Shown piece by piece: positions 39,400-63,977 of a stretch of 64,000 nucleotides of DNA. A model generated the notes under the pieces. The model did no database searches. It was given only the letters and a program-made list of their open reading frames with translations, and was not told the origin of the DNA. Made by a program: the position numbers and the translations under genes. The stretch is from Candidatus Woesearchaeota archaeon (GTDB lineage: Archaea > Nanobdellota > Nanobdellia > SCGC-AAA011-G17 > JACPIM01). The stretch spans positions 58,226 through 122,225 of the forward strand of contig JBDRGP010000029.1 of NCBI GenBank assembly GCA_043817645.1. The letters are read 5' to 3'. The first letter of the stretch is position 1. Every line of letters starts with the position of its first letter.

Positions 39400-39469
39400 T
39401 TTTTACTACTCTAGGATGAGCAACGAGGTATATAAACCTTTCGGTTATGACCTTACCCTACAGTAGTTA

Positions 39470-45351: not shown

Positions 45352-45353
45352 TT

Positions 45354-45617: not shown

Positions 45618-45672
45618 ATTTTAGTAAAAAAGAGATATTTTTATAAAGATTATGGAAGTGGTACTTCTTGTG

Positions 45673-46101: not shown

Positions 46102-46193
46102 GCTTTTGAGCGTGAATAAGCAAGTAATTTAAAGCTTTTGCTCTGATTGGTTAGGTAAATTTTAAAAACATCAAAGGCTCTATTGAGTCTAAA

Positions 46194-46892: not shown

Positions 46893-47184
46893 TGAGAAAG
46901 TTTATGATAAACTGAGAACGGTTCCTAAAGGGAAGGTTACAACTTATAGAGACTTAGCACGTTCTGTAAATTCAAAAGCTTATAGAGCTGTTGGTAGAGC
47001 AATGAAGAGTAATAAAAATCCTGTTAAAATTCCTTGTTTTAGGGTTGTTAAAAGTTCTGGAGAGGTTGGGGAGTATAGTGGTAGAGGCGGTGTTAAAGAG
47101 AAAATAAGAAAATTAAGGAGAGAAGGTATTTGTGTTAAAGGGAATAAGATAATTGATTTTGAGAAGTTTGTTTATAGGTTTTAA
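46879..47184 (+). CDS. ogt: Methylated-DNA-protein-cysteine methyltransferase-like protein (short, DNA-binding/active-site domain only)
   Basis: 101 aa. It has VTTYRDLARSVNSKAYRAVGRAM and an active-site-like IPCFRVV, where the canonical motif is PCHRV. Confidence 0.6.
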   Translation: MKTFSEKVYDKLRTVPKGKVTTYRDLARSVNSKAYRAVGRAMKSNKNPVKIPCFRVVKSSGEVGEYSGRGGVKEKIRKLRREGICVKGNKIIDFEKFVYRF

Positions 47185-47621
47185 TTTATAGTTTTCCTTT
47201 CTTCTTTTACTATTTGTGTTGCTAAAGGAATAATTTTTGGAAATTCAACACCTCTGTTGTTTAAATATTTATCAACTTTTTTTGCTTCAAGTGCTTCTAC
47301 AATAACCTTTTCTGCGTGTTCCATATCAAAATTTTTGCAAGAGAAGATATCAACAAAGGCATGTTCTTGTTCAACAAATGTATGGATTACAATATGACTT
47401 TCTGCAATAAGAACAAATGCTGATATACCTCCTTTATCAAAGCTAGTTTCTTTTCCAGGATAGGAAGTAATTTGAGGTGGTGCAATTTTAGTCATACCGA
47501 TTTCAGAAGGCAATTTATCTAAGAAATTATAAATGAACTGGAGATCGTTTAGTTTCTCTTTGTTGCACCCGTATAGATCTAACATTAGATGGGGCCCAAA
47601 TCCGAAAGTTGTCTGATTCAT
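47181..47621 (-). CDS. speH: S-adenosylmethionine decarboxylase proenzyme (class 1b)
   Basis: 146 aa. It has the LIAESHIVIHTFVEQEHAFVDIFSC motif, with self-cleavage Ser in ESH. Confidence 0.8.
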   Translation of the reverse strand: MNQTTFGFGPHLMLDLYGCNKEKLNDLQFIYNFLDKLPSEIGMTKIAPPQITSYPGKETSFDKGGISAFVLIAESHIVIHTFVEQEHAFVDIFSCKNFDMEHAEKVIVEALEAKKVDKYLNNRGVEFPKIIPLATQIVKEERKTIN

Positions 47622-47754
47622 CTTGCATAAATATCATCCCAATTAATAGAAGAATTATGAGAATTTTTGCTTAAAAAGCTTTCTGTTTCCTGTTTGTAGC
47701 ATTTTTGGAATGGTAAATAAATTTATATATCCTGTAAGAGGTTGAATTAGTTAT

Positions 47755-50304
47755 ATGTATTATAACTTGGGGAAAGAAGAGGTTTTACGTAAATTAGATA
47801 CTTCTGAGAAAGGTCTGTCTGATAGAGAGGTTAGTGCCAGATTAAGGAAATATGGGAAGAACGTTATAAAGAGAAAACATAAGATAAATCCTGTAGTTTT
47901 ATTTTTGAAGCAATTTCTGGATCCTTTGGTTATTATTTTACTTATTGTTACTATTGTGAGCTTTTTTTTAGGGGAGTATTTGGATTCCGTTGTTATACTG
48001 GCTATACTCCTTATAAATGCTATAATTGGATTTGCTAATGAGTATAAAGCTGAAAAGTCAATTGAATTATTACAAAAATTAACTGCTTTACACTCTAGGG
48101 TGCTAAGGGATGGAAAAGAGAAAATAATTCCTGCCTCTAATTTAGTTCCTGGGGATATTATTGTTTTTGAGAGCGGGGACAGGATTGGAGCTGATGTGAG
48201 GGTAATTCAGCAGAGTAATTTGGGTTTGGATGAAGCAATTTTGACAGGTGAGAGTACTCCAGTAAACAAACAATTACACGCTATTGGGCATCATTGTGAA
48301 AAAATCATTGTTGCTGAGCAAAGCAATATGGTGTTTAAAGGAACTACTGTTGTTTCTGGAAGAGGCAAGGGCGTGGTTGTTAGTACTGGCATGAATACTG
48401 AGATGGGAAAGATTGCAGAGTTGGTTCAAGAAGTTGTGAGTGTTAAAACTCCTTTGCAGAAAAGATTGAAAAAATTAGGGCATAAGTTGACTGTTGGTGC
48501 TGTGTTTATTTCTGTTTTAGTTTTTAGTATTGGGATCTTTAGAGAAATGGGGATTTTTAATATGTTTAAGACTGCTATTGCTTTGGCTGTTGCTGTTGTG
48601 CCTGAAGGTTTGCCTGCTGTTGTTACTGTAAGTTTAGCTATTGGTGTGAGAAGGATGTCTAAAAGGCATGCTCTAGTTAGAAAATTGAGGGCTGTAGAAA
48701 CTTTAGGAAGTACTCGTGTTATTTGCAGTGATAAGACAGGGACGATAACCAAGAACGAGATGACTGTTAGAAAAATATTTGCTCATGGCAAAATGTTTGG
48801 TGTTACTGGGGTTGGTTATGGTGTGAGAGGAAGTTTTCTTTATAAGGGAAAAGAGGTTAATTCCCATAGTTTGCACAATATGTTTAATGTTGCTGCTAGT
48901 TGTAATAATTCTGCTCTTCCAAATATAGGGGATCCTACTGAGTTGGCTTTATTGGTTTTAGCTAAAAAAGGAGGAGTAAATAAAATTGAAGAAAGGGTTC
49001 GTGAATTTCCTTTTGATGCTAAAGAGAAGTATATGTCTACTACGCACAGGATTCATGGGGAGGAAGTTACTTTTTTGAAAGGTGCTCCTGAGAAAATTCT
49101 TGGTTTTTGCGATTATATTGAGATTGGTGAGAAGATAATTAAATTAGATAAAAAAGGCAAGGAGAAGGTTTTGGATAAGAATCATGAGATGACTTTAGAG
49201 GCTCTGAGGGTTCTAGGGTTGGCTTATAAAAAGCACGACAAAGCTGTTTTTTTGGGCTTGGCTGGGATGATTGATCCTCCTAGAAAAGAGATTAAGAATG
49301 CAATAAAAGTTGCTCATAAAGCAGGTATTAGAGTTATAATGATTACTGGAGACCATCAAAACACAGCTAAAGCTATTGCTAATAAAGTTGGTATTGCTGG
49401 GGATGTGATGGAAGGAAAGGACCTGACTAAGGAAAAATTGGGAAGAGTAATAAATAAAGTGAATATTTTTGCCAGGGTTGATCCTGAGCATAAAGTTATG
49501 ATTCTAGATGTTTTACAGAAGAAAGGTGAAGTTGTAGCTATGACTGGAGATGGTGTTAATGATGCTCCTGCTTTGAAAAAAGCCGATGTTGGTATTGCTA
49601 TGGGGATTAAAGGCACTGATGTTGCTAGAGATACAAGCGATATTGTTTTAGCAGATGATAATTTTGCTTCTATTGTTAAGGCTGTGAAAGAAGGAAGAAT
49701 TATTTATGATAATATCAAGAAGTTTGTGAAGTTTTTGTTAAGTGCCAACATGGGTGAAGTTGGGATTATAGTAGTTAGTCTGTTATTAGGAATGCCTTTG
49801 CCATTACTGCCTTTGCAACTGTTGTGGATTAATTTGGTTACAGATGGGCTGCCTGCTTTAGCTTTGGGTGTAGATAATTCTAATGTCGATGTTATGAAGA
49901 GAAAACCTAGAGAGAAGAAAGAAACTATTTTGAAAGGAACTTATGGGTTTATCTTTATTGCTGCTATAATAGCTACTGTGGTTATGTTGGGTCTATTTAA
50001 GTACAATCTGAAAGATGGGGTGATGGAGGCCAGAACCGTTGTATTAACTGCCCTGATTTTGTTTGAGCTATTTTTGGCTTTTAGTTGTAGAAGTGAGACT
50101 AGTGTATTTAAATTGAAAGTCAATAAATGGTTGTGGGGCGGTGTTATTTTAAGTGTTCTATTGCACTTGACTATTATGTATACTCCCTTGAATGCTGCTT
50201 TTCAACTAGTGCCTTTGGGTATTGCGGACTGGTTTTGGATAGTTTTATTTAGTAGTTTAGGGTTTGTATTCTTTGAGGTGAAAAAATTAATATGGCACTC
50301 TTAG
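47755..50304 (+). CDS. P-type cation-transporting ATPase (type II, Ca2+-ATPase-like)
   Basis: 849 aa. It has phosphorylation motif CSDKTGTIT and TGDGVNDAPALKKADVGIAMG. The fold is 10 TM. Confidence 0.9.
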   Translation: MYYNLGKEEVLRKLDTSEKGLSDREVSARLRKYGKNVIKRKHKINPVVLFLKQFLDPLVIILLIVTIVSFFLGEYLDSVVILAILLINAIIGFANEYKAEKSIELLQKLTALHSRVLRDGKEKIIPASNLVPGDIIVFESGDRIGADVRVIQQSNLGLDEAILTGESTPVNKQLHAIGHHCEKIIVAEQSNMVFKGTTVVSGRGKGVVVSTGMNTEMGKIAELVQEVVSVKTPLQKRLKKLGHKLTVGAVFISVLVFSIGIFREMGIFNMFKTAIALAVAVVPEGLPAVVTVSLAIGVRRMSKRHALVRKLRAVETLGSTRVICSDKTGTITKNEMTVRKIFAHGKMFGVTGVGYGVRGSFLYKGKEVNSHSLHNMFNVAASCNNSALPNIGDPTELALLVLAKKGGVNKIEERVREFPFDAKEKYMSTTHRIHGEEVTFLKGAPEKILGFCDYIEIGEKIIKLDKKGKEKVLDKNHEMTLEALRVLGLAYKKHDKAVFLGLAGMIDPPRKEIKNAIKVAHKAGIRVIMITGDHQNTAKAIANKVGIAGDVMEGKDLTKEKLGRVINKVNIFARVDPEHKVMILDVLQKKGEVVAMTGDGVNDAPALKKADVGIAMGIKGTDVARDTSDIVLADDNFASIVKAVKEGRIIYDNIKKFVKFLLSANMGEVGIIVVSLLLGMPLPLLPLQLLWINLVTDGLPALALGVDNSNVDVMKRKPREKKETILKGTYGFIFIAAIIATVVMLGLFKYNLKDGVMEARTVVLTALILFELFLAFSCRSETSVFKLKVNKWLWGGVILSVLLHLTIMYTPLNAAFQLVPLGIADWFWIVLFSSLGFVFFEVKKLIWHS

Positions 50305-51239
50305 TTGATTTTATACTCTTTTTTATATTCGCTTTTGTATTAGCAAGGAGTAGTATTTGGGTGATTAGAAGTTTAGGAAGAATTTCTTCTTTTATGAGAA
50401 TTAGTGAATTCACTGCAGGTTTTGTTATTTTGGCGTTAGCTACTACGCTTCCTGAACTATTTGTTGGTATCAATGCCGCTCTTAATAAAGCGCCTGCCTT
50501 AAGTTTAGGAAATGTTATTGGAAGTAATATTGTTAATTTAACTTTAGTGCTAGGTATTGCAATTTTAGTTGGTAGAGGTATCTTAGTTGAAAGCAAGATT
50601 ATCAGACGAGATGCTTTTTACATGCTTTTGATTGCCAGCTTGCCTGTATTATTAATGTTGGATGGAAGGGTGAGCAGGTTTGATGGATTTATTTTACTTT
50701 TTGCTTTTTTGGTTTATATGCTGAAAATGCTTAAGGAAAGAAAGATGTTTGAAAAACCTGTAAACCACTATAAGCCTTATGGTATGTTCAATAGTTTTGG
50801 ATTGTTCGTTATTAGTATGATTTTGTTGATAATAAGTTCAAATTTTCTAGTTAAATTTGCAGTGAATATTTCTAGAGATCTTAATGTTGCTCCAATATTG
50901 ATTGGATTATTTTTGGTAGCTATTGGAACTTCTCTTCCTGAATTGGTTTTGGGTATAAGGGGGGTCTTGGCAGATCATAAAGATTTGGTTATGGGAGATA
51001 TTATTGGGAGCGTGGTTGTGAACTCTACATTAGTTTTGGGGGTTACTGCATTGATTTTTCCTATAATCGCTAACTATACCTTGTTTATAACCAGTGCTTT
51101 TTTTATGATGGTTGCTTGTTTATTGTTCTTAGCATTTGTAAATACTGATACGAAACTTACTATACGTGAAGGAGTAATACTTCTTATGCTCTATGTGGGT
51201 TTTATTATTGTAGAAATAGGGTTGAATGTATTCAAGTAA
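50292..51239 (+). CDS. Na+/Ca2+ exchanger (CaCA family, YrbG-like)
   Basis: 315 aa. The two alpha-repeats are GNVIGSNIVNLTLVLG and GDIIGSVVVNSTLVLG. Confidence 0.8.
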   Translation: MALLVDFILFFIFAFVLARSSIWVIRSLGRISSFMRISEFTAGFVILALATTLPELFVGINAALNKAPALSLGNVIGSNIVNLTLVLGIAILVGRGILVESKIIRRDAFYMLLIASLPVLLMLDGRVSRFDGFILLFAFLVYMLKMLKERKMFEKPVNHYKPYGMFNSFGLFVISMILLIISSNFLVKFAVNISRDLNVAPILIGLFLVAIGTSLPELVLGIRGVLADHKDLVMGDIIGSVVVNSTLVLGVTALIFPIIANYTLFITSAFFMMVACLLFLAFVNTDTKLTIREGVILLMLYVGFIIVEIGLNVFK

Positions 51240-51254
51240 AAAAAGAAAAGAAAA

Positions 51255-51524
51255 TTATTTCTTAAGCATCCATATTCCAAATAGGATGAATAAGATAGTC
51301 CACCATTGAACTGTCCACCAGGCGAATCCACCTAGGTCTCTTATTAAATAAAGAACTCCTAAAATCAATAATATCCATCCTAAACCTTTTGAATGACAAC
51401 AGCATGGATTAAATCCACAAACCCTGCATACGGTTCCTGATGGAACACTTAAGGCTTTTGATAAAGTTGCCTTACTGCCCCTTTTAGATGATGATCTTTT
51501 TCGTGAAGCTTTTCTTTTAGCCAT
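51255..51524 (-). CDS. Small membrane protein with basic N-terminus and Cys cluster
   Basis: 89 aa. It has CRVCGFNPCCCH, then 2 TM helices. Confidence 0.4.
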   Translation of the reverse strand: MAKRKASRKRSSSKRGSKATLSKALSVPSGTVCRVCGFNPCCCHSKGLGWILLILGVLYLIRDLGGFAWWTVQWWTILFILFGIWMLKK

Positions 51525-51608
51525 TAAATTAACACCCCCTATTTTTAAAGAAATACTGTGTTTCTATTTATAAATTAATGTAACTATCCTGAAGTGTTGT
51601 TTTTGTTT

Positions 51609-51893
51609 TTACTTTTCTGTGAGCTCTTCAACTTCCTTTTTTCCTTTTTCTAACTCTTTTTCTTGCTCTTTGTCTTCTTTTAGTAAAAGAGCTTGAAATT
51701 CTCCTACGTGTGTTTTTTCTTCTTGTGCTATCTCTAAGAGAATTTTTTTTAGATTATTGTTTTCTGTCATTGCAGCCATTTGTTCATAGAGATTTATGGC
51801 GTCTAATTCTGCTATTATTCCTGCTCTTAATATTTCTGTGTCTAATACTTCTTTTTTTACTTTTTCAAGTCTAATTGGTAATTGTGATAACAT
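51609..51893 (-). CDS. Ferritin-like (rubrerythrin-type diiron motif) small protein
   Basis: 94 aa. ELDAINLYEQMA...EEKTHVGEF shows E...E-x-x-H diiron-ligand spacing. Confidence 0.4.
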   Translation of the reverse strand: MLSQLPIRLEKVKKEVLDTEILRAGIIAELDAINLYEQMAAMTENNNLKKILLEIAQEEKTHVGEFQALLLKEDKEQEKELEKGKKEVEELTEK

Positions 51894-51991
51894 TTTTTAC
51901 CTCCTGTCTTTTGCGATATCTCTAGGTTTTTATACTTTTTCTAGATTTTGGTTCCCTTCAGAAAAAATTCCTATAACGGGAGGGGAGAAAC

Positions 51992-52654
51992 TTAACTTCT
52001 ACTTAGACTCCTTACCTTAGTCTTTAAAGCATTATGCAACTCAGCAATTCTATCTACATATCCCAAAACCTTTTTTACGTCATTTAGATCAATTGAGTTT
52101 CTTGGTGCAACTATATACCCTTCCATAGCTTTAATTGCTTCTATAAAATAGTTTTCAGAATCGCTAGCAGTTTGCGTTTCAAGAACAGTTTGCGCCTTCA
52201 ACCTCTCAACCAAGTAACCGGGGACTAAACCTAATGTTCTACTAAGTGCTCCTATAGTTTTTAAGGTAGGATCAATTATTCTTCCTGTTTCATAGGATGA
52301 AATTTGTGGCGAGGTAGTTCCTGTCATTTCAGAAACTTCTCTTTGAAGCAATCTTCTTGCTTTCCTTTGTTTAGCAAAAACTCTTCTAACATAATTATCA
52401 ATTTGTTCTCCATGTAATAAACCTTCATTTCCTAGATCTTCAACTTGCCCATTGTCCGTCCTATAAAGAACAATAGGGATTAAACCAAGTCCATGAGCAA
52501 TTTTTTCAATAGAAGATAGACGAGAGTTTCCTCTCTCAAGGATATGACGTAAAGTTGTCTCGGGTATTCCTACAGTTCTTGCTATACCATGCACATTCAT
52601 TCCTAAGTCTGCCAAAAGTTCTTCCAGTCTCCTATGAATCAATTTTCTTTGCAT
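51992..52654 (-). CDS. XRE-family transcriptional regulator with two HTH domains; GC-richer
   Basis: 220 aa with two Cro/C1-type HTH segments (GIARTVGIPETTLRHILERG and LLQREVSEMTGTTSPQISSYETG). Confidence 0.55.
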   Translation of the reverse strand: MQRKLIHRRLEELLADLGMNVHGIARTVGIPETTLRHILERGNSRLSSIEKIAHGLGLIPIVLYRTDNGQVEDLGNEGLLHGEQIDNYVRRVFAKQRKARRLLQREVSEMTGTTSPQISSYETGRIIDPTLKTIGALSRTLGLVPGYLVERLKAQTVLETQTASDSENYFIEAIKAMEGYIVAPRNSIDLNDVKKVLGYVDRIAELHNALKTKVRSLSRS

Positions 52655-52766
52655 GTCTAAGTACGATTTAGCAGACTATTTATAAAAGTTTCCATCATTT
52701 TACCACCTTGGAGGGTTAACATTAAAAATAGATAATAAATTTTGGGGGTGGAATTTTCTTTAAGGT

Positions 52767-55700
52767 TTATAGCTTTAAAGAAGTAATTTTAGAAATTCCG
52801 TTTTGCTGCATTGAAACACCATAGATATAATCTGCTTCTGTTATTACATGGTCGTTGTGGGATATCATGACTACTTGAGAGGATTTTGCATATTGACAGA
52901 CTAAATTTGATAATAATTGTGAGTTTGTTTTGTCTAATGCTGCGTCTACCTCGTCTAGTAAGTAAAAAGGAGCTGGTTCATATTCTTGGATTGCGAAAAT
53001 TAAAGCTAGAGCTGTTAATGTTTTTTCTCCTCCTGATAAAGAGTGTAGGTCAAGGAATTTTGTTCCTGCTAATCTTACTCTTATGTTTATACCGCCGTCT
53101 AAAGGATTTTCCTTGTTTTCTAATTCCAGGTATGCATCACCTTTCGAGGATAAAGTTAAAAAGATTCTTTTGAAGTTTTCTGCTATTTCTTTATAGGTTT
53201 TTAAGAAAACACGCTTCTTTTTTCCTTCTATTTGAGTCATCATGCCTAAGACGTCGTCTTTTTCTTTTTGCAATGAGCCTTTTTTTGTGTTTAGTTCTTC
53301 AAATTCTTTTAATATTATCTCATAAACTTCCAGGGCTTTTAAATTAACATTTCCGATGTTTTTTAGCATTCTTTCAAAGTCAGTTATTTCTCTTTTTAGA
53401 TCTTCAGCAGATATGTTTCTTCTTAATTTTGTTCCTATATAAGGTTCATACTCTTGTTGTAGTGCTTCTAGCTCTGCAACGATTTTTGCTCTTTGCAAGG
53501 AGATTTCATTCATCTTTTTTTCAACTTCTCTTTGCTTAAAGTCCTCTTGAGATATGAAGGATTCGTATTTTCTTATTTCTTCTGTTATTTTATTTCTTTT
53601 ATTGAAAAGCGCTTTGTAGTTTTCTCTGAATTTCTGCTCTGATTTTTCTGCTTCTTTTAATTTTTGTTGTTGTAGTTTTGAGGTTTCTTTTAATGATTTT
53701 TCTTCTTCTGAGAACTTTTTGATTTCTTTATTGTGTTGTGTTATGATTTCTTGTATTTTTTCAATTTCTGGATTGTGTATGGAAGATATTTGGCTTTGGA
53801 AGTTTTTTATTTGTGTGTTGATTTGTGTTAGTGATTCTCTTTGTTGTTTGTGTTTTTCATGGAAGTCTTCAATCTTAGATTGCTTTTCAGATGGTTTTCT
53901 TTCTGCTTTTAGTCTTTCAATCTCTCTTGATAGATTTATTTCATCTGCTTGTAAAGATTTTATTCTTTTTTCTGATTGTTTAATTAAGGAGGATAATTCT
54001 GTTCTTTTGTTCTTTAATTTTGATAGGTCTGCTATTTTTGACGAGTGCTGGAGTTTTGTCATTTCTGCTTCTAAAATTGCTTTATCTTTTGATAAGGTTT
54101 GTATAGAAAGCTGTTCTTTTTGTTTGTGTGTTAATAATTCAGTTAAATCAGTTTTTAAGGTTGATATTTCGCTTTCTTTTTGTGAGATTTTAAGGTCTAT
54201 GTCTTTTTGTTCGAAAATCCCTAATGTTCTTTTTCTAAAACCGCCTATCATTGCTCCAGACGGTTCTACTAAGTCTCCATCTAAAGTAACCATTCTTACT
54301 CTTCCAATACCCACTTTTCTTGCTGTTTGCAGGTCTTCTATAACTAAAGTTGAGCCAAAGACATATGAAAAGGCTTTTTCGAATTTTTTGTCGTATTTTA
54401 TTAAGTTTTTTGCTGCGTCTATAACACCTGTGAAATTCTTTAATTGCTCCAGTTCTTTTTCTCTTGAGCTTATTTGCAGTTTATTCAAAGGCAAGAACAT
54501 GGCTATGCCTGCTTTTTTTTCTTTTAAGGTTTTAATGCAATCGCTTGCAGTTAAGTCTGTGTCTGTTATTATACTATTTATTCTTCCTGAAGCTGTCACT
54601 TCTAAGGCTGTTGAGTACTTATTGTCAACCTTTCCTAAGGCGGCTATTGTTCCGAATACTCCTTTTGTTTTTGAATTTAATATTGTGCTTATGGCTTGAT
54701 TTCCTGAGAGAGATTGGGCAATTCTTATTTTAGTTCCTTGTAATGTGGATAATTCTTCTTTTAATTGAGAGGTTTTTTGATGATTTTTTTCTATTAAAGT
54801 AGTTGTCACATTGGATCTATCTACTAGCTTTGATAGAAAATCTTCTGCTTTTTTTAATTCTAGGAATTTTTTCTTTAATAACGGAGAGGATAATTTATCC
54901 AAGGTTTCTTCTATATGCGCTAATTCTTGGGAATTTTGGTTTTTCTGGATTGTTTCACTTGAGATCTCATGTTTTATTTTGAAGAATTTATTTTGGAAGG
55001 AATCTAATCGGGATTCTAATTTTTCTAATGAAGAAATATCTTGTTTTTTTCTTAAATTTTGGATATCTGAGGTGGTTTGTTTTTCTTCTTGTTCTAGAGT
55101 TTTTGATTTTGTTTTTAATTCTTGGAGTTCTTTTTCTAAGGAGCTTATTTTTTCATGGATTTCTTTTTCATCTGTGTTTAGAGAAGAGATTCTTTGTTTT
55201 ATATGAAAAATTTCATTTGTTACTGTTTCTAGTCTCGCTGAGTCTTTTATGATTCTTTCTCTTAAAGCTTCTGTGTTTTTTTGTAGGCTGATTTGCTCTA
55301 CTTCGCCTTTTTCCTCGATTTCATTGTTTGTGTTTTCTAATTCTGATTTCTTTTGTTCTATTTTTTCTCTAAATTCTTGTATTTTTTTAACTGTAGAGCT
55401 TATGTTTGATTGGCGTTTTTTTATCTTTGATTCTATTTCATCTTTTTTGAATTCCTTATCTTTTATTTGTAAGTATAAGTGTGTTGCCTTACTTTCCTTA
55501 ATCCTTGATTCTAATTCTTTGAATTTTAAGGCTTGATCTCTCTCTTTTTTTAATTCTCTTAAATGGACTTCTCTTTCTTTTAAGATTAGGGCTGCGTCAT
55601 TTAATTTTTGTTCTACTTTTTCTAATTCTAGAAATGCTTTATGTTTTTTATCTTCGTATACTGATATTCCTGATATGTCTTCTATTAAGACCCTTCTTTC

Positions 55701-56168
55701 ATCCGGTTTCATTTCTGTAAATAATACTATGTCTCCTTGCAGGACTATGTTAAAACCGTCTGGGTTTATTCTTGCTTTTGAAAGTAGGTCTACTGCTTGC
55801 TGTCTTGTTCTTTTTTCATCATTAATTTTGTAGATTGAGTTTCCTGATTGTTTTACTACTCTTGATATTTTTACTGAGTTTGTAGCTAAAGGAAATTCTT
55901 TTTCTTTGTTTGTAAAGAAGATTGCTACTTCTGCTTCTCTCATTGGAGAGCCTTTTTTTCCTCCATTGAAAATTAAAGATGCTGCGTTTTCTGCACGCAT
56001 TTGTTTTGCTGAAGTTTTACCTAAGACGAACGTGAAAGCATCCATTATGTTTGATTTCCCAACTCCATTACTGCCTATAACTGCCGAGAATCCATTACTA
56101 AATTCTAGATCGATTTGTTTTGCAAAGGACTTAAACCCCTTAATTTGTATCTTTTCTATGTAACTCAT
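52767..56168 (-). CDS. smc: Chromosome segregation protein SMC
   Basis: 1133 aa. It has N-terminal Walker A GSNGVGKSN, long coiled coils, a hinge, a C-terminal signature LSGGEKTLTALALIFAI, and Walker B LLDEVDAALD. Confidence 0.9.
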   Translation of the reverse strand: MSYIEKIQIKGFKSFAKQIDLEFSNGFSAVIGSNGVGKSNIMDAFTFVLGKTSAKQMRAENAASLIFNGGKKGSPMREAEVAIFFTNKEKEFPLATNSVKISRVVKQSGNSIYKINDEKRTRQQAVDLLSKARINPDGFNIVLQGDIVLFTEMKPDERRVLIEDISGISVYEDKKHKAFLELEKVEQKLNDAALILKEREVHLRELKKERDQALKFKELESRIKESKATHLYLQIKDKEFKKDEIESKIKKRQSNISSTVKKIQEFREKIEQKKSELENTNNEIEEKGEVEQISLQKNTEALRERIIKDSARLETVTNEIFHIKQRISSLNTDEKEIHEKISSLEKELQELKTKSKTLEQEEKQTTSDIQNLRKKQDISSLEKLESRLDSFQNKFFKIKHEISSETIQKNQNSQELAHIEETLDKLSSPLLKKKFLELKKAEDFLSKLVDRSNVTTTLIEKNHQKTSQLKEELSTLQGTKIRIAQSLSGNQAISTILNSKTKGVFGTIAALGKVDNKYSTALEVTASGRINSIITDTDLTASDCIKTLKEKKAGIAMFLPLNKLQISSREKELEQLKNFTGVIDAAKNLIKYDKKFEKAFSYVFGSTLVIEDLQTARKVGIGRVRMVTLDGDLVEPSGAMIGGFRKRTLGIFEQKDIDLKISQKESEISTLKTDLTELLTHKQKEQLSIQTLSKDKAILEAEMTKLQHSSKIADLSKLKNKRTELSSLIKQSEKRIKSLQADEINLSREIERLKAERKPSEKQSKIEDFHEKHKQQRESLTQINTQIKNFQSQISSIHNPEIEKIQEIITQHNKEIKKFSEEEKSLKETSKLQQQKLKEAEKSEQKFRENYKALFNKRNKITEEIRKYESFISQEDFKQREVEKKMNEISLQRAKIVAELEALQQEYEPYIGTKLRRNISAEDLKREITDFERMLKNIGNVNLKALEVYEIILKEFEELNTKKGSLQKEKDDVLGMMTQIEGKKKRVFLKTYKEIAENFKRIFLTLSSKGDAYLELENKENPLDGGINIRVRLAGTKFLDLHSLSGGEKTLTALALIFAIQEYEPAPFYLLDEVDAALDKTNSQLLSNLVCQYAKSSQVVMISHNDHVITEADYIYGVSMQQNGISKITSLKL

Positions 56169-56191
56169 ATTTAAATAAGGTCAATTTTTGG

Positions 56192-56217
56192 TTTATATAG
56201 GTTTTTATAAATGAAAA
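56192..56217. promoter_or_regulatory. 26-bp promoter-containing direct repeat, copy 1 (TATA-like TTTATAAA on the minus strand, 24 nt upstream of the smc ATG)
   Basis: TTTATATAGGTTTTTATAAATGAAAA is identical to 56920-56945. The spacing to the downstream ATG is the same. Confidence 0.55.
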
Positions 56218-56245
56218 AACTACTGATTTGAGTTGTTTTATTTTT

Positions 56246-56896
56246 CTAACAAACTCTCTGGCCCAAATATATGAAATGTATTGTAAGACCTCCTCCCCAC
56301 TGCCTTACAACTTTAGGAATAGCTAATTTTGTGTTAAATCCCGCCTGATCCATCAGTCCTAAGCAGTCTTCTAAACCGAGGCGTGTGTGTATTTTATGGG
56401 CTTGTTTATCACCTAATAAACGGCGCTCTCTGAATTCACTTTTAAGTTGACCCCATCGAGAAAAGAATTCGCCAATATCCATCCCTTTCATAGCGTAATC
56501 TATTATTCTAACGTACCCGCCTACTTTAGCATAGGATGCAATTTCTCTGCTAATTGATAGTGTATCTTCATGAATAACTGCTAATCCAAGCACTACATCA
56601 AATGTTCTATTGGGTTTTTTATCTGAGTATTCTACGTGCATATGTTGTAAACCCCTATTCCTTGCTAGCCTGATTTTCTCTTTATTTCTATCATATGCCT
56701 GAACAGTACATTGCGGGAAATAAACTGCAGTTACATAAGGTGAGCTGCTGGTTCCGCAACCGAATATTAGTATAGAAGCAGGGTCCATCAAACTTCTAAT
56801 ATTCATAAAAAGACGGCCTGGGGTGGTACGATTGAAAGCGCTTCTTTGGTCTGGGGTGAGTACGCGAGTATCCAGTTGTATGGTTGGTGTATACAT
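56246..56896 (-). CDS. Class I SAM-dependent methyltransferase; GC-richer, flanked by the duplicated promoter repeat
   Basis: 216 aa. The SAM motif is ILIFGCGTSS. Confidence 0.55.
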   Translation of the reverse strand: MYTPTIQLDTRVLTPDQRSAFNRTTPGRLFMNIRSLMDPASILIFGCGTSSSPYVTAVYFPQCTVQAYDRNKEKIRLARNRGLQHMHVEYSDKKPNRTFDVVLGLAVIHEDTLSISREIASYAKVGGYVRIIDYAMKGMDIGEFFSRWGQLKSEFRERRLLGDKQAHKIHTRLGLEDCLGLMDQAGFNTKLAIPKVVRQWGGGLTIHFIYLGQRVC

Positions 56897-56919
56897 AAAT
56901 ATAAAGGATTTCTGAGGAA

Positions 56920-56945
56920 TTTATATAGGTTTTTATAAATGAAAA
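56920..56945. promoter_or_regulatory. 26-bp promoter-containing direct repeat, copy 2 (24 nt upstream of the methyltransferase ATG)
   Basis: It is identical to copy 1. The 24 nt between the repeat and the ATG are also similar in the two copies. Confidence 0.55.
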
Positions 56946-57088
56946 TTGCCCATATTCTTCGTGGTGGAAAGATTTATAAAGCCCAATTAACAAGTTGAAT
57001 AGTAGAGCATTAAAGTTGAAGAGAAAGCACTTGCATAAACATGGGCTATTTCGCTTTTTCTATTGTGGTGCTATATATGAGGTAAAAA

Positions 57089-58276
57089 ATGAATTTATTT
57101 GAAGAATTTGGCTTAAGCCATGAGTTATTAACATCAATTAAAGAATTGGGGATTACTACTCCAACTCAAATCCAAGGATTATCAATTAAGGATATAATCT
57201 CAGGAAAGGATATTATAGGAGAATCAGCTACTGGTTCTGGTAAAACACTAGCTTTTGGCTGCGGTATAGTGGAACAAATTATGCCTAAAGAGGGATTACA
57301 GGCTATGATTTTGACTCCTACAAGAGAACTTGCTGAGCAGGTTAAGGGATCATTGAGACAACTTTCGAATAAGAAAGGTTTGAATGTTACTTCTGTTTGT
57401 GGAGGGGCTGCGATAAACCCACAGGTTAAAGATTTGTTAAGGGCTGAGGTTGTAGTTGCTACTCCTGGCAGACTATTAGACCATCTTAGGAGAGGGTCTG
57501 TTAATTTATCAAAGATTAAGTTGCTTGTTTTAGATGAGGCTGATAGAATGTTTGATATGGGATTTATTGAGGATGTGGAAAAAATTATTCATGCTTGTCC
57601 TAAAAAGAGACAAACTTTATTTTTTTCTGCTACGATTTCAATGAGAGTGAGAGATCTTGCTAAAATGTACATGGTTGATCCAAAAAAAGTTTCGGCAGTG
57701 AATCAGGTTGATCCCAGTAAATTGAAACAGGTTTATTATGACTTGCAAAGGAATATGAAACTTTCTTTACTTGCACACTTATTGCAACAGGAAAAATCAG
57801 GGCTGGTTATGGTTTTTTGTAATACTAGAAGAAACACTGATTTTGTTACTAAAACTCTTAGAGCAAATAGGATTAATGCAATATCAGTTCACGGTGGTTT
57901 ATCTCAAAATAAGAGAAATCGGACTATTGAATTGTTTAATGGTGCGAAAGTGGGTGTTTTAGTTTGTACTGATGTTGCTGCCAGAGGTTTGCATATTGAT
58001 AATGTGTCTCACGTGTATAATTATGATCTTCCAAAGGATGCAAAGGACTATGTTCATAGGATAGGAAGAACAGCCAGGGCTGGTGAAGAAGGAAAGGCAG
58101 TCAGCCTTTTATGTGATTTTGACTATCCCAATTTTTCTAGGATACAAGAAGAATACCCGGGATTTGTGATTGATAAGATGGAAAGGCCTTATATTCAGAA
58201 ATTGGCAGTAATGCGGATGGATAATCAGAGAAGACCTCCTTTTAGAAGGGGTAATTCTGGGTTTAGACGTAGGTGA
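57089..58276 (+). CDS. DEAD-box ATP-dependent RNA helicase
   Basis: 395 aa. It has Q-motif, GSGKT, PTRELA, DEAD (VLDEADRM), SAT, and HRIGRTARAG. Confidence 0.85.
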   Translation: MNLFEEFGLSHELLTSIKELGITTPTQIQGLSIKDIISGKDIIGESATGSGKTLAFGCGIVEQIMPKEGLQAMILTPTRELAEQVKGSLRQLSNKKGLNVTSVCGGAAINPQVKDLLRAEVVVATPGRLLDHLRRGSVNLSKIKLLVLDEADRMFDMGFIEDVEKIIHACPKKRQTLFFSATISMRVRDLAKMYMVDPKKVSAVNQVDPSKLKQVYYDLQRNMKLSLLAHLLQQEKSGLVMVFCNTRRNTDFVTKTLRANRINAISVHGGLSQNKRNRTIELFNGAKVGVLVCTDVAARGLHIDNVSHVYNYDLPKDAKDYVHRIGRTARAGEEGKAVSLLCDFDYPNFSRIQEEYPGFVIDKMERPYIQKLAVMRMDNQRRPPFRRGNSGFRRR

Positions 58277-58500
58277 TTATTTGTTTATATTACTACTATT
58301 AGAATAATGGCCAACAGTAGTTGAGAAAGTAAATTATTTTTAATAGAAAACTAAGTTTACTCTACAAATTTATCCTTCACTATCCATTGATTTCTAAAGA
58401 AAATCTACAAAAAACCTAAATTTTTGTTACAATTTTACAGAAACAACAATAAAAAATATACCACCAACTAGAACCTTTCTATAATAAATAGAAAGAACCA

Positions 58501-60066
58501 TCACGTTGGAGGATCTTCATAAACAACACGATAAAGAATAACAGAAAACAGCTTAGCAGTAATGATAGGTTTATCACTAATTCTTCCATATACAACCAAA
58601 GAAACACAAATATTCACTAAAACCCACAAATTATACAAACACACTGAAAATAAGAAATAAAACAACCTTATCAAGTAATTCTTACTAGTAGTTCTGGCCT
58701 TAAAATCATGATCTAATTGCCTATATCCAGTTTCAATACCCCATCTTTTAGAATACCAATAATAAAGATAATGAGCTAATTGTTCTGGAACATGAAAATT
58801 AGTGATAAAGGCTCTTTGAATACCTTCCTCATCATCTACTAGAATTAGATTAACTTTGGCTTTCTCCTTCTTACCAAACTCAAAATCTTTAATTATTCTA
58901 GCTCTACAATCCAAACTTTTATCCATCCAAGCCTTAACTCTATCACTCCTTACTTTAGGCATTACAAACTTAATTCTATTGGCCTTAAGAACATTAATCA
59001 CCTTTGGCTTATCAAAACCCCTATCTAAATAAGCCTTATCAATATTTATTTTATCTTTAACTCTTTTAATTATTTTATCAACTAAGTCCTCTAAATTATC
59101 CAATTTATGCATTAATATGGCATCAATCGTAAACCTTCTTCCAGCAACCACAATAGCACATGTAATAAATTGATGAAAATGTGTTGTACCTCTATCTAAT
59201 TTCCCTTCAATTACATAATCATCGTTCTTATCACCATAATAAGGAATATTATGAATGTCTATAGCTATATCTAACTGTCTTCTTCTTAATCCTCTATAAT
59301 TTCTCTTAGCAAAGTTAAAAATAGTGTTAAATACATTATCAAACATCTCTTGTATTATTGTTTTATTACTAAATTTATTAAAGTGATATAACATAGTCCA
59401 GCCACTAGGACATTTCGATTCTGAATTTAATTCTTTAAAAGTTTCAGTACCATTATGGGCAAAATCATGTGTTTGTGCAACATGTACCAAGACATCTAAC
59501 AAATCTTTAGTAGTAAACTTACCATTATTTTTAATCTTAATATCAATTTGCGGATAAATTAATTTCTTTACTAATTTTATAGTTTCTTTTTTTATTTTTC
59601 TTTGTTCTTTAATCTCTTTATTTTTTTGATTAACTGCATTTTTTACTAATTCTAAATCTAAAATAACTCCTTTTTTAGTTGCAGTTTTAAGAATTAATTT
59701 TACTATATTATTTAATTCAAAAAATAAATCTTCATCAACTTTATTCTGGAAAAATCTATTATACCAACTTTTAGCAGGTAAAACTAATTTATTACTCTCT
59801 TTATGAAATCCTAAATGTAACGCTTCTTCCTCCGTTATTTGATCTAATGCTTTATGAAAGAACCTTATTGCTTTGATTTTCTTCCAAAGATAGAATTTCA
59901 GTAAAGATTCAGGAGAGAATTTAGATTGTCTTTGATTGATTACATTGGTAGTATTAGAGAGATCTAACTTGGATAAAATAAAAGAAACCTTAATACAACT
60001 TGTAGTATCAAGGCTTTCAAAAATTTTATTAAGTTCAGATTCCAAATAGCCAATAGAGTTTTTCAT
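58501..60066 (-). CDS. DDE transposase (IS4/ISH3-like family)
   Basis: 521 aa. It has DRGFDKPKV..., a typical DDE-IS4 C-terminal region. Confidence 0.6.
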   Translation of the reverse strand: MKNSIGYLESELNKIFESLDTTSCIKVSFILSKLDLSNTTNVINQRQSKFSPESLLKFYLWKKIKAIRFFHKALDQITEEEALHLGFHKESNKLVLPAKSWYNRFFQNKVDEDLFFELNNIVKLILKTATKKGVILDLELVKNAVNQKNKEIKEQRKIKKETIKLVKKLIYPQIDIKIKNNGKFTTKDLLDVLVHVAQTHDFAHNGTETFKELNSESKCPSGWTMLYHFNKFSNKTIIQEMFDNVFNTIFNFAKRNYRGLRRRQLDIAIDIHNIPYYGDKNDDYVIEGKLDRGTTHFHQFITCAIVVAGRRFTIDAILMHKLDNLEDLVDKIIKRVKDKINIDKAYLDRGFDKPKVINVLKANRIKFVMPKVRSDRVKAWMDKSLDCRARIIKDFEFGKKEKAKVNLILVDDEEGIQRAFITNFHVPEQLAHYLYYWYSKRWGIETGYRQLDHDFKARTTSKNYLIRLFYFLFSVCLYNLWVLVNICVSLVVYGRISDKPIITAKLFSVILYRVVYEDPPT

Positions 60067-60096: not shown

Positions 60097-60267
60097 CTAG
60101 TACTTGCCCTTAGGACTTAATTGTAGATCAACTATCGCTTGCCACATACTTCTAAATTGCATATCCATTTCCTGATGTTCATCACAAAGCACTCTTCTTA
60201 GTATTGGATTGAACTTTCCAGGTTTTTTGCAATACTTGCAAGGCCTGTAGGTTCTAATGAGTTTCAT
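60097..60267 (-). CDS. Small zinc-finger ORF upstream of the transposase (orfA-like), not in the ORF track
   Basis: The translation is MKLIRTYRPCKYCKKPGKFNPILRRVLCDEHQEMDMQFRSMWQAIVDLQLSPKGKY (56 aa). Confidence 0.4.
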   Translation of the reverse strand: MKLIRTYRPCKYCKKPGKFNPILRRVLCDEHQEMDMQFRSMWQAIVDLQLSPKGKY

Positions 60268-60380
60268 TGAATCACCTCCTTTTCTAGTAGTATTATAGTA
60301 GTATGTAATACTTATATTTAAAGATTATTGTAATACAATAAATATATCTTTATATAATACTTTAAAGACATAATACCTTT

Positions 60381-60605: not shown

Positions 60606-63600
60606 TTGATAAAAAAGAATATTCTTTTGCCGATATTCATTTTATTAATAATTATAAGTTTCTCTGCTATTGTTATCTCTCAAAAAACTTCTCTTCAAAA
60701 AGCAAATTCTATAAAGAACATAGATGATTCTGATATGCTTTATAAGTTTACACATTTAAAAGGATATAAATCTATCAGTTTTGATATCTCCTCTTCTAAG
60801 GACTTTAATATTAATAAAGTTGAAAAAATTGATACTTTTTCTGATAAAAAAGTTGGGAATATATTTAAATTGAATAATTTAGCTGTAGAAACGGAGTATA
60901 AAGAGGTAGACACAAGTTTTTTTAATACAGATACAAGACCTGTAAAGCAGACTTATATCATAAAAAATTTATTAGATAAATCTAGAGATATAAAGTTAAA
61001 TATAAAATACGAAATTGACTCTTCTACTATAACATGGAATGGTACAGAATATGAAATCACTGAAACTCCTAAACATTTTGAGGCCTTTTATGTTGAAGAT
61101 GAATTTTTTCCCGATAATGAACTTTCTCCTGAAATTGCTATTAAATCTTTAACAGGGCATACTTTATATTTTGGTAATAATTATTATGATTTTAAAGATG
61201 TAGTTGATTTGGATTATAAAGTTTTAATATATTCTAAAGAAAATAAAAATTATATTGGTTTAGAAATAAAATCCGATATTGATTCTTTAGAAGAATTTGT
61301 GATAGATCCTGAAATTGGGTGGACAACCAGGATTGTAGATAATTCAGCAAAGGGAGCAAGGGATGTGTTTGCAATAGATATGGATAATGATAATGACATA
61401 GATGTAGTTGGCGCATCTTTTGCAGGATTGGTTAATAAGATTGCCTGGTATGAAAATGATGGAAACTCTCCTCCAAGTTGGACCACTAGAAACATAAGTA
61501 CAATCATTGTTTGGAGTGAACCACGTTCAGTCTATGCAATAGACATAGATAATGATAATGACATTGATGTGTTGACTGCATCTTCTCAAGACAATAGGGT
61601 TGCCTGGTATGAAAATGATGGGGGTTCTCCTCCAAGTTGGACTACAAGAAACATAACTACTTCTGTTGATGCAGCACAGGATGTTTTTGCAATAGACATA
61701 GATAACGATAATGACATTGATGTGTTGAGTGCATCTTATTATGATAATAAGATAGCATGGTATGAGAATGATGGATCTACACCACCATCCTGGACCACTA
61801 GAAACATAACTACTTCAGCAAATGGAGCTCGCTCTGTTTTTGCAATAGATATGGATAATGACAATGATATAGATGTGTTAAGCGCTTCGGGAAGTAAGGT
61901 CGCTTGGTATGAGAATGATGGAAGTACTCCTCCTAGTTGGACTGCTAGAACTATAACTACTTCAGCAAATGCACCAAGGCGTGTGTTTGCAATAGATATG
62001 GATAATGATAATGACATAGATGTGTTAAGCGCTAATTATGATAAGATAGCTTGGTATGAGAATGATGGAAGTACTCCTCCCAGTTGGACTGCTAGAACTA
62101 TAACAACTTCAGTAGGTGCAGCAAGGGATGTGTTTGCAATAGACATAGATAATGATAAGGATATAGATGTGTTGAGTGCATCTTCTCATGATGATAAGAT
62201 AGCATGGTATGAGAATGATGGAAGTACTCCTCCCAGTTGGACTACTAGAATTATAACAACTTCAGCAGATGCAGCATATTCAGTCTATGCTATAGATATA
62301 GATAATGATGGAGATGTGGACGCTTTAAGTGCATCTACTACAGATGGTAAGATTGCTTGGTATGAAAGTCGTTTAGACCCTTCTTCTATTTATAAGTATT
62401 TGTGGGTCCCATTTGGAAATTGGAACTCTCAACAGGAATTTGAAAATGATGCTAAAAAAAGAGCAGACTTTTTCCTAGAAATTTCTCCTTTACAATCCTG
62501 TAAAAGTAAAGCACAGAATATTTATATTGATATTGACTGGGTAGAAGTTAATTGCCCCTATGTGACATCAGACATTCCTGAAAAAAAATTATTACAATTT
62601 ACAGAAAAGTGCGCAAAGGCTTATATATTAGACACTGGTATAGGACCTTATGAAAAAGCAATAAGCTTTTCTAAAGATGATTTTTGTGATAGTTGTGCTG
62701 GAAAGGCTACTCTAGGTGGAAAATATGCTTATGCTGAAACTGAGTGGAGTGGGGTTGAGCATCTAGAAATCGCCGCACACGAATTAGGGCATACTTATTT
62801 TGTATGTGATGAATATAAATATCTTGGAACTTCAGGATGGTCTAATGAGAATAATGAGTTGTTATTAAAGCACGGGTTTGGTTGCCCGAATCCTTGGACT
62901 GATACATATGATGAGTATAATGAAACACACTCTAACCATCCATGTTTAGAGGATGATAGTGGAAGATGTATTCGCGAGGGAAAATGTTGTGGTGCCTTTA
63001 ATGACCCAATTAGCCATTACGATGGAATTTATTCTGCTGCTGGCAATGATTGTACTGATGAGACTACCTATAATGTTGTTGGGTGGGGTGGCACAGAGAG
63101 AAGATGTGGATATAGTACCGATTCTTACAACAAATTAGCAGAATTTTTAACTTGTTCAGATAATCTACGATCCAACGGAAATGGAAATATCACAAATGTT
63201 TCATATTTAGGTTTGCTATTTAATATAACTAATCCAACACAGGAAAATGTCACTTTGGGTGACAGCTTTGTTCATAGAGGATTGTTGCCTAAGAAATTAG
63301 GCGTCAATGATAGTCTTTATGAACTAAAGATCACTAATGCCAATAATCAAACTATAGATTCAGATCCATTACCAGTATTCTACTTTGAACTAGTGCAATA
63401 TGACAATGCAACTATAAATGTAAGCGATGATAAAAATGAAAGTTTTATTGTTAGTGAGTTAGAATACACATCAAATTGGGAAATGTTGCAGGTTTATAAA
63501 AACGATTCTTTAATTTATGAAGTCAATATTTCTCATTTATTATGCAATGAAAATGATATTTGTGATGAAAAAGAGAACTTCTTTAGCTGTCCACAAGATT

Positions 63601-63977
63601 GTAGTTCTGGAAGTAGCGACAATATATGCGATGGACAAGATGATGGAATATGCGATCCAGATTGTTATTATAGTGCAGATGCTAATTGTGCATTAGATTT
63701 AACTAATCTTACAATAGTATCGCAAAATGGGACAGAATTCATTTTTAGATTCGTTATTAATAACTTTTGGAATAATACTATCTCAAATATAAGTTGGATA
63801 TTAGATCCAGAGATTAATGATATTATGTCAGAATTAACTCTTAATCTTGAGACTAATGAAACAGCTTTTGTCTATGTGGAATATGATTATACTAACACAG
63901 GCAATTATACTGTATTAGCAGCTGTTGAAACTAGTGAATTATCTGATACTGAAACAGTTTCTGTGGAGGTCATATGA
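60606..63977 (+). CDS. Giant secreted protein: N-terminal signal, 8 tandem FG-GAP/VCBS-like beta-propeller repeats, HExxH zincin-like domain (HELGHT...DEY), Cys-rich C-terminal domains
   Basis: 1123 aa. The repeat unit V(F/Y)AID(I/M)DNDNDIDVLSAS..DKIAWYENDGSTPPSWTxRxITTS occurs 8 times with Ca-binding DxDxDxD loops. HELGH is at 62778-62792. Confidence 0.65.
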   Translation: MIKKNILLPIFILLIIISFSAIVISQKTSLQKANSIKNIDDSDMLYKFTHLKGYKSISFDISSSKDFNINKVEKIDTFSDKKVGNIFKLNNLAVETEYKEVDTSFFNTDTRPVKQTYIIKNLLDKSRDIKLNIKYEIDSSTITWNGTEYEITETPKHFEAFYVEDEFFPDNELSPEIAIKSLTGHTLYFGNNYYDFKDVVDLDYKVLIYSKENKNYIGLEIKSDIDSLEEFVIDPEIGWTTRIVDNSAKGARDVFAIDMDNDNDIDVVGASFAGLVNKIAWYENDGNSPPSWTTRNISTIIVWSEPRSVYAIDIDNDNDIDVLTASSQDNRVAWYENDGGSPPSWTTRNITTSVDAAQDVFAIDIDNDNDIDVLSASYYDNKIAWYENDGSTPPSWTTRNITTSANGARSVFAIDMDNDNDIDVLSASGSKVAWYENDGSTPPSWTARTITTSANAPRRVFAIDMDNDNDIDVLSANYDKIAWYENDGSTPPSWTARTITTSVGAARDVFAIDIDNDKDIDVLSASSHDDKIAWYENDGSTPPSWTTRIITTSADAAYSVYAIDIDNDGDVDALSASTTDGKIAWYESRLDPSSIYKYLWVPFGNWNSQQEFENDAKKRADFFLEISPLQSCKSKAQNIYIDIDWVEVNCPYVTSDIPEKKLLQFTEKCAKAYILDTGIGPYEKAISFSKDDFCDSCAGKATLGGKYAYAETEWSGVEHLEIAAHELGHTYFVCDEYKYLGTSGWSNENNELLLKHGFGCPNPWTDTYDEYNETHSNHPCLEDDSGRCIREGKCCGAFNDPISHYDGIYSAAGNDCTDETTYNVVGWGGTERRCGYSTDSYNKLAEFLTCSDNLRSNGNGNITNVSYLGLLFNITNPTQENVTLGDSFVHRGLLPKKLGVNDSLYELKITNANNQTIDSDPLPVFYFELVQYDNATINVSDDKNESFIVSELEYTSNWEMLQVYKNDSLIYEVNISHLLCNENDICDEKENFFSCPQDCSSGSSDNICDGQDDGICDPDCYYSADANCALDLTNLTIVSQNGTEFIFRFVINNFWNNTISNISWILDPEINDIMSELTLNLETNETAFVYVEYDYTNTGNYTVLAAVETSELSDTETVSVEVI
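61340..62345 (+). repeat. Eight ~120-bp tandem coding repeats (beta-propeller blades) inside the 60606..63977 gene
   Basis: The strings gatggaagtactcctcccagttggac and gcaatagatatggataatgataatgacatagatgtg recur at ~120-bp period. Confidence 0.7.

Follow-up and report, generated by a model that had tools for sequence, protein, structure and literature searches.

Near-identical promoter sequences that stand before non-homologous genes have been described as putative mobile promoters, and are read as the recent recruitment of a resident promoter (PMC3488235). The survey of such promoters by Matus-Garcia, Nijveen & van Passel in 2012 accepted only alignments of 50 nt or longer and an identity of 80% or higher (PMC3488235). 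Here we describe a related case at the smc locus of a Candidatus Woesearchaeota archaeon, within a stretch of 64,000 nucleotides from contig JBDRGP010000029.1 (hereafter the window). A 26-bp element with the features of an archaeal core promoter stands there in two exact, direct copies, one before smc and the other before the adjacent gene, which codes for a predicted class I S-adenosylmethionine (SAM)-dependent methyltransferase. The likeness to the putative mobile promoters (PMC3488235) lies in a promoter shared by genes for unrelated proteins, SMC and the methyltransferase, whose upstream neighbours are likewise non-homologous (the methyltransferase gene in the case of smc, a DEAD-box helicase gene in the case of the methyltransferase). 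In contrast to those promoters, the shared sequence measures only 26 nt (100% identical) between unrelated flanks, and it falls short of the 50-nt criterion because an archaeal core promoter is so short. Furthermore, the two copies are adjacent, directly oriented and placed around one gene, and consist of an archaeal transcription factor B recognition element (BRE) and TATA box of the leaderless type. The case belongs under the concept of promoter propagation and is a known kind of event rather than a new system.

Target-site duplications provide a second point of reference. Transposons, casposons, the duplication of CRISPR (clustered regularly interspaced short palindromic repeat) repeats and microhomology-templated insertions all produce a short host sequence that was ancestrally present once and is found twice, in direct orientation, around new DNA, as is the case here. 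The DDE transposase families leave target-site duplications of ~2-15 bp, and 26 bp is far longer than this type. In addition, the DNA enclosed at the smc locus is without terminal inverted repeats, transposase, Cas1 or CRISPR context, and its ends are the edge of a TATA box and a run of T. With its A-rich BRE, 8-nt TATA box and ~23 nt to the ATG, the element itself resembles the BRE/TATA promoters of leaderless mRNAs, a signature familiar from Sulfolobus and haloarchaea; only its exact duplication is unusual.

A 26-bp direct repeat upstream of two adjacent genes

The smc gene occupies positions 52767-56168 on the minus strand and codes for 1133 amino acids, with Pfam matches to SMC_N (3.1e-60) and SMC_hinge (1.7e-26). 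The methyltransferase gene (56246-56896, 216 amino acids) lies upstream of it on the same strand. The sequence TTTATATAGGTTTTTATAAATGAAAA is present exactly twice in the window, at 56192-56217 before smc (the proximal copy) and at 56920-56945 before the methyltransferase gene (the distal copy); read on the minus strand, it is TTTTCATTTATAAAAACCTATATAAA. Both copies lie on the minus strand in the same, direct orientation, and each is followed by 23 nt and then the ATG, at 56168 for smc and at 56896 for the methyltransferase. No further match was found in the window even when three mismatches were allowed, the next-best agreement being 20/26, and none occurred in 100 dinucleotide-preserving shuffles, the chance expectation being 0. 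At a fixed register, identity at 26 of 26 positions has a probability of ~3e-15. Few other exact repeats of at least 18 nt are present in the window, namely one fragment of a paralogous gene, the repeats within an FG-GAP protein and two 18-19-mers that stand alone. The 26-bp repeat is real and significant.

Identity between the copies ends sharply at both borders after 26 bp. The 40 nt upstream of the two copies agree at 15 of 40 positions, which is the chance level, and the two spacers agree at 8 of 23 positions when aligned without gaps, a value that 44% of unrelated spacer pairs in the window attain. An earlier note on this DNA had placed the element, with a TATA box inside it, 24 nt upstream of both start codons, and had described the 24-nt leaders as similar. 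Two exact copies do precede smc and the methyltransferase gene and are the only ones in the window; the TATA box appears to be genuine, as set out below, and the distance, 23 nt from the end of each copy to the ATG, was correct within one base. The similarity of the leaders does not stand, being at chance level.

Could two promoters have arrived at the same sequence independently, by chance or by convergence on a regulator site or a consensus promoter? An A-rich BRE and TTTATAWA are common to the promoters of this DNA, and the element is partly palindromic (TTTATA...TATAAA). However, a binding site under selection is not fixed at every position, and the statistics given above for identity, shuffles and next-best match mean that independent similarity is effectively refuted.

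The repeated element as an archaeal core promoter

The 60 nt upstream of all 61 long open reading frames (ORFs) of the window were inspected. Many of these ORFs are preceded by a purine-rich stretch and then TTTATAWA ~22-26 nt before the ATG, and a minority by GGAGG-like sites instead of a TATA box. Within 80 nt upstream of start codons the pattern YTWTAWAW yields 31 hits, 14 of which are found at distances of 21-26 nt from the ATG; the background rate is 0.0016 per position. Because the hits cluster in this interval, the window appears to bear the signature of leaderless BRE/TATA promoters, and the pattern of spacing implies that its mRNAs would be mostly leaderless. Both copies of the repeat follow this pattern. 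Each carries AAAAACC-TATATAAA, a putative BRE and TATA box of the form (C)TATATAAA preceded by AAAAA, 23 nt before its ATG, and the distance of 23-24 nt from TATA box to ATG at both copies is the modal spacing of the window. Judged from its sequence, the element is a BRE/TATA core promoter of the archaeal kind, spaced from the ATG as is usual in this genome.

The smc spacer, from TATA box to ATG (56169-56191, minus strand, 23 nt), leads us to predict that transcription starts at the ATG or immediately beside it, which would yield a leaderless mRNA. The spacer of the methyltransferase gene (56897-56919, minus strand) has the same length of 23 nt and an unrelated sequence, and transcription of the gene from the distal copy is predicted to yield a leaderless mRNA. 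That the spacer has this length depends on the choice of ATG 56896 as the start codon, a choice that is supported because the N-terminal region upstream of the internal Met31/Met37 aligns with the protein family and is confidently modelled from residue 11. The identical core promoters predict a similar basal strength of the two genes, not shared regulation; co-regulation of smc and the methyltransferase would require a regulator site inside the 26 bp.

The copy adjacent to smc is ancestral

Relatives of the smc locus were sought by SMC scans of genome and metagenome contigs, by a homologue search with the SMC N-terminus and by exact-protein look-ups. The closest loci are L001/L008, from a Nanoarchaeota metagenome-assembled genome (MAG) from Hainich groundwater, with an SMC 68% identical over its full length, and L009, with an SMC 74% identical over the first 320 residues. 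Save for fragments of the same strain, no smc relative beyond ~70-78% protein identity was found in the collections searched, and the intergenic flanks cannot be aligned because the nearest relatives are only this close.

The promoter core can nevertheless be compared. In both L001 and L009, AAAAAyyTATATAAAyCAAAA stands before smc, with 22-24 nt between it and the start codon. The 3' 17 nt of the proximal copy are identical to the L001 smc promoter at 16 of 17 positions, and the match runs on into the spacer (CCAAAA(A)TTGA), the 5' part of which is kept in both L001 and L009. Thus, the proximal copy runs into CCAAAAATTGA, like CCAAAATTGA in L001, and the distal copy runs into the unrelated TTCCTCAG. 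In more distant relatives the smc promoter sequence differs. As L001 and L009 share the core together with its spacer with the proximal copy only, the comparison identifies the proximal copy (56192-56217, minus strand, exact repeat, an A-rich BRE with the TATA box CTATATAAA), together with its spacer, as the orthologous, ancestral smc core promoter native to this gene, and the distal copy (56920-56945, minus strand) as derived from it.

Downstream of smc, the window and L001 have the same gene order over ~7.5 kb (window 45238-52767), and this agreement stops exactly at the smc promoter. An exception to this synteny is the ~1.3 kb immediately below smc (51431-52767), which holds the gene for a 220-amino-acid HTH_3 (Cro/C1-type) regulator (51992-52654); smc is thus bordered by lineage-specific genes on both sides. 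The upstream neighbour of smc is a DnaG-like Toprim gene in L001, a small ORF on the opposite strand in L009, an RNase HII gene in L022, a gene of no recognised kind in L023 and a ParE-like pair in L024. Accordingly, a methyltransferase gene upstream of smc is found in none of these five related loci, and its adjacency to smc is derived and specific to the lineage. The upstream side of smc is a recurrent synteny breakpoint. The orthologues of the DEAD-box helicase (72-75% identical) have other neighbours, too, and the methyltransferase gene is absent from the two longer related DEAD loci. An ancient association of the methyltransferase with smc or with the DEAD gene was considered and rejected on these absences. 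A conserved pairing of methyltransferase and HTH_3 genes was also considered, with the order methyltransferase then HTH_3 in L012 and the HTH_3 gene after smc in the window; the two HTH proteins are unrelated (E = 0.33) and the pairing was dropped.

The methyltransferase and its relatives

The methyltransferase belongs to a small uncharacterised archaeal family. Its Pfam matches are below the gathering cut-offs (Methyltransf_31 with 24.9 bits against a cut-off of 27, Methyltransf_12 with 22.3 bits against 30), and in a word-based search its sole match was the protein itself. An exhaustive HMMER search gathered a family of 72 clusters at E values up to 1e-3, the best of which are 38-42% identical to it. 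The motifs FGCG (nearly invariant), YD, VLHE, DYDMKG, FFxRWG and HT are conserved in the family. The AlphaFold model has a predicted local distance difference test (pLDDT) value of 92.5, and Foldseek matched this model at a probability of 1.00 to many class I methyltransferases, the top matches being small-molecule enzymes with template modelling (TM) scores of 0.55-0.63. In a profile search of the PDB, 3mgg was matched at 4.5e-11. No match to defence or phage families was found in PADLOC or PHROG. Model and profiles together indicate that the protein has a class I SAM-dependent methyltransferase fold. It is not of the restriction-modification type.

The predicted fold has the Rossmann-like architecture in common with solved class I small-molecule methyltransferases (PDB 3dtn MM_2633, CouO/NovO and CysG(N-16)). 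A GxGxG-type motif I, common among class I methyltransferases, has its counterpart in FGCGTSS, with an acidic residue ending strand 2 (YD). However, the protein is only 13-18% identical to the solved class I structures, and the DYDMKG, FFxRWG and HT motifs are its family's own.

Its homologues reside in AT-rich archaeal chromosomes (29-34% GC) beside genes for Cdc48, Spt4, ribosomal proteins S27e/S24e, Rpb7, TrmB and RIO1, and they have ordinary TATA boxes of their own 23-26 nt before the ATG. The woesearchaeote L017 carries one of them, 42-46% identical. The DnaG proteins of L017 and L001 are 72% identical, which puts L017 at about the same distance as that between L001 and the window. For comparison, syntenic non-housekeeping orthologues of the window and L001 are ~51% identical.

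The base composition of the methyltransferase gene is within the range of the window. Its GC content is 0.402 against a window mean of 0.339 (z +1.8), and its GC content at third codon positions (GC3) is 0.310 against 0.250 (z +1.6); two genes are higher in each case. The per-codon likelihood of its synonymous usage is the lowest of the 61 genes, and after correction for length its codon z of -4.2 is exceeded by that of smc (-5.0) and of one other gene. Composition was therefore rejected as proof of foreign origin, GC and GC3 being in range and the codon deviation being surpassed by smc itself. A viral origin was likewise rejected: no copy of the 26-mer is present among 2.9 million viral contigs, and the methyltransferase has no PHROG or PADLOC match. 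Because the composition is in range and homologues reside in related archaeal chromosomes, the gene may as plausibly have been inherited vertically and relocated as acquired horizontally. These results divide the proposal of the earlier note, which read the methyltransferase gene as a foreign, GC-richer insertion that had duplicated or captured the smc promoter. The duplication, its origin in the smc promoter and the local novelty of the arrangement are borne out, the last by the comparison with related genomes that the note had suggested, in which five smc loci have no methyltransferase upstream. GC-richer is true relative to smc (0.402 against 0.310) and does not make the gene an outlier in the window. 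The comparison of codon usage and GC3 with the other genes of the window gave no clear foreign signal and, with homologues in related AT-rich archaea, leaves the foreign origin unsupported. Newly placed at smc is a supported description of the gene; foreign is not.

Origin of the duplicated promoter

The two copies enclose a segment of 702 bp (56218-56919, minus strand), composed of the 23-nt spacer, the methyltransferase ORF and a 28-nt 3' trailer (56218-56245, minus strand) that, as read from the sequence, ends ...GTAGTT. The trailer and the first four T of the proximal copy make up a run of six T (T6, 56214-56219) just before the smc TATA box. Oligo-T runs act in archaeal transcription termination, and the T6 run is a candidate oligo-T terminator of the methyltransferase gene. 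The segment is without terminal inverted repeats, with a best score of 8 against a shuffle mean of 7.3, a score reached by 39% of shuffles; it contains no recombinase or integrase gene, its only sizeable ORF being the methyltransferase. Flanking repeats were not found at the homologous methyltransferase loci. The lack of inverted repeats, together with the lack of repeats at the homologous loci, argues for a one-off event rather than for a mobile cassette.

These properties bear directly on the possibility that a recombinase, a transposase, or a casposase-like or integron system produced the two copies as att-type or target-site duplications. Direct repeats do flank a segment with a single gene, an ISH3-family transposase gene is located 1.6 kb away (58501-60066), and synteny with the relatives is lacking upstream of smc. 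However, apart from the missing recombinase gene and terminal inverted repeats, the length of the repeat is outside the 2-15 bp usual for transposase duplications, and it is the native smc promoter sequence and not borne by an element; it is absent from the rest of the window and from the viral contigs mentioned above, and the homologous methyltransferase loci have no repeats around them. As to integrons, an attC site is an imperfect palindrome of ~55 nt or more, and the 28 nt that follow the stop codon are too short for one; furthermore, no integrase is found among the neighbouring genes. A site-specific or mobile element is, in our judgement, very improbable.

The most economical path would be that a gene segment without a promoter entered the smc promoter and its 26-bp target was duplicated, so that a single recent, non-homologous rearrangement would have left two identical direct copies around the 702-bp segment. 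We give this insertion by one illegitimate event a probability of roughly 0.55. It is favoured because the borders are sharp and the flanks unrelated. The left junction coincides with the 3' edge of the TATA box, the right one falls within the T-run, and a junction at the TATA-box edge would automatically reproduce the 23-nt spacing. Template switching or end joining at the TATA-box and oligo-T microhomologies may have been the route; re-entry 26 nt behind the exit point would account both for the duplication and for the kept spacing. The resulting order is the DEAD promoter, 22 nt, one copy, the methyltransferase gene, the T6 run, the other copy and smc, with each gene (methyltransferase and smc alike) possessing a complete core promoter at a spacing suited to a transcription start at the ATG. 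Since smc retains the promoter and spacer that it had before, its expression could be unaffected. The methyltransferase transcript would end at least partly at T6, and any read-through would add to smc transcription. In principle, the 26-bp direct repeats could permit precise loss of the segment.

Several points weigh against this insertion. No relative closer than ~70% protein identity was found and no empty site is at hand, which leaves the direction of the event unproven; a single illegitimate event could equally have copied the promoter to the front of a gene already in place. No donor sequence is known; such a donor would carry TTCCTCAGAAATCC after its own TATA box. A 26-bp target duplication exceeds any common transposase-type duplication known to us. 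The 23-nt spacing could also be explained by in-register replacement of an earlier methyltransferase promoter at its TATA box. The junction of trailer, proximal copy and smc is seen in the window assembly only, the contigs of another assembly breaking at the proximal copy. Finally, we infer, and do not observe, which piece moved, how its ends were joined, including the part played by microhomology, that the distal copy is transcribed, and that T6 terminates.

In-register replacement is the substance of the main alternative. Here, the methyltransferase gene would have resided between the DEAD gene and smc, and a copy of the smc promoter would have overwritten its TATA promoter in a conversion-like or template-switch patch. 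The family is present in related Woesearchaeota chromosomes behind the ordinary TATA promoters described above, which makes a resident gene plausible, and equal spacing would follow naturally if the exchange took place at the TATA boxes. A paralogue pair in the window (35095-35447 and 41029-41393), with patchy blocks of 100% identity, suggests that ectopic conversion takes place in this genome, and duplicated promoters before non-homologous genes are widespread in prokaryotes (PMC3488235). However, conversion normally requires flanking homology, and both flanks of the promoter copies are at chance identity, unlike those of the paralogue pair. No relative has the methyltransferase beside smc or DEAD, and a sharp 26-bp tract between unrelated flanks suggests illegitimate joining more than conversion. 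We consider overwriting of a resident promoter possible but, on balance, doubtful.

The assembly itself requires consideration, as the methyltransferase gene and smc could have been mis-joined at or near the short repeat. The same strain is represented in assembly ERZ27247128 (and in JGI 3300014656). The contigs L007 and L020, from two assemblies and 100% identical to the window, confirm the DEAD side, the distal copy with both of its flanks and the methyltransferase gene. The methyltransferase contig includes only 6 nt of the proximal copy (56212-56217) before it ends, and the smc contig L021 starts exactly on the first base of the copy; because the contigs break there, the junction of trailer, copy and smc is provided by the window alone. 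On the other hand, a mis-join would need shared sequence, and the two contigs share only 6 nt, so that spanning reads would have been needed to join them. The window is part of a MAG contig of 161 kb, low-coverage assemblies often break in AT-rich intergenic DNA, and the distal copy and both flanks are confirmed independently. A mis-join is thus quite unlikely. The plainest explanation of the break is a coverage gap in AT-rich DNA; alternatively, strain heterogeneity at the repeat could cause it. A de Bruijn model with two haplotypes, with and without the insert, was tried and rejected, as it predicts unitig ends at 57059 and 56078 and those observed are at 57128 and 56212.

The insertion of a promoterless segment, if it took place at the TATA box and the T-run, also invites a broader proposal, namely that the junctions are no accident and leaderless archaeal genomes would be able to take up a promoterless gene into a resident promoter by template switching at the TATA box and at an oligo-T terminator. 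The core promoter would be duplicated, newcomer and resident would both be expressed, the insertion could be precisely undone, and the contig breaks in the independent assembly would stem from a mixture of cells that have or lack the segment. This generalisation sits firmly on the unlikely side.

Neighbouring genes and other features of the window

The DEAD-box helicase gene (57089-58276, plus strand) is divergent from the methyltransferase gene. Its promoter (GAAAGATTTATAAAG) and a conserved structured leader of ~85 nt occupy 56968-57088 on the plus strand and begin 22 nt from the distal copy. Because the distal copy is only 22 nt from the DEAD BRE/TATA, the three promoters, of DEAD, methyltransferase and smc, form a very compact region. 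The DEAD BRE/TATA and leader (56983-57088) are conserved in L025 (4900-5003), L026 (83-186) and L027 (4900-5003), and the sequence further upstream is not. The leader has a Shine-Dalgarno-like GAGGT and a predicted consensus hairpin of 22 pairs, three of them with a compensatory change. Apart from one tRNA, no match at the Rfam gathering score was found in the window. The DEAD leader may be a cis-regulatory RNA of Woesearchaeota, perhaps in cold shock or autoregulation; two of the related loci have cold-shock domain (CSD) genes nearby.

Beyond the DEAD gene, the ISH3-family transposase gene (58501-60066, minus strand) is accompanied by a 56-amino-acid ORF (60097-60267). Candidate imperfect terminal inverted repeats of this element are located at 58291-58306 and 60288-60303. 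The element belongs to the non-syntenic region and is two genes away from smc on its upstream side. It is followed by an FG-GAP repeat protein gene (60606-63977, 1123 amino acids), also upstream of smc, with multiple near-exact internal direct repeats at 61355-62230 that have periods of ~147-153 nt and multiples thereof.

Elsewhere in the window, a 132-amino-acid ORF (35086-35484) duplicates the 5' ~390 nt (41020-41410) of a 764-amino-acid ORF 5.9 kb away; neither has Pfam hits. The alignment of the two paralogues is a mosaic of 100%-identical blocks (35095-35236 and 35319-35447) with ~60% identity between them, their promoters are unrelated, and the pattern suggests patchy ectopic gene conversion. 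The divergent genes at 38593-39399 (minus strand) and 39470-39844 (plus strand) share one palindromic TATA region at 39400-39469 (AAAGGTTTATATACCTCG and its reverse complement), whose distance to each ATG is of the leaderless type and which resembles a compact bidirectional promoter. A tRNA-Gly(CCC) at 16457-16547 is 91 nt long, which implies an intron, and was not reported by the tRNA model of Rfam at its gathering threshold.

Implications

The scope of this case is small though well resolved, and the methyltransferase gene is not shown to be foreign. It offers a recent, base-pair-resolved example of promoter acquisition by a gene in a streamlined DPANN archaeon. Duplication of a putative 26-bp BRE/TATA core would have provided smc, an essential gene of chromosome maintenance, and its new neighbour each with a promoter at the exact leaderless spacing. 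Because the functional unit is so short, surveys of promoter propagation with thresholds of at least 50 nt would miss archaeal cases of this kind.

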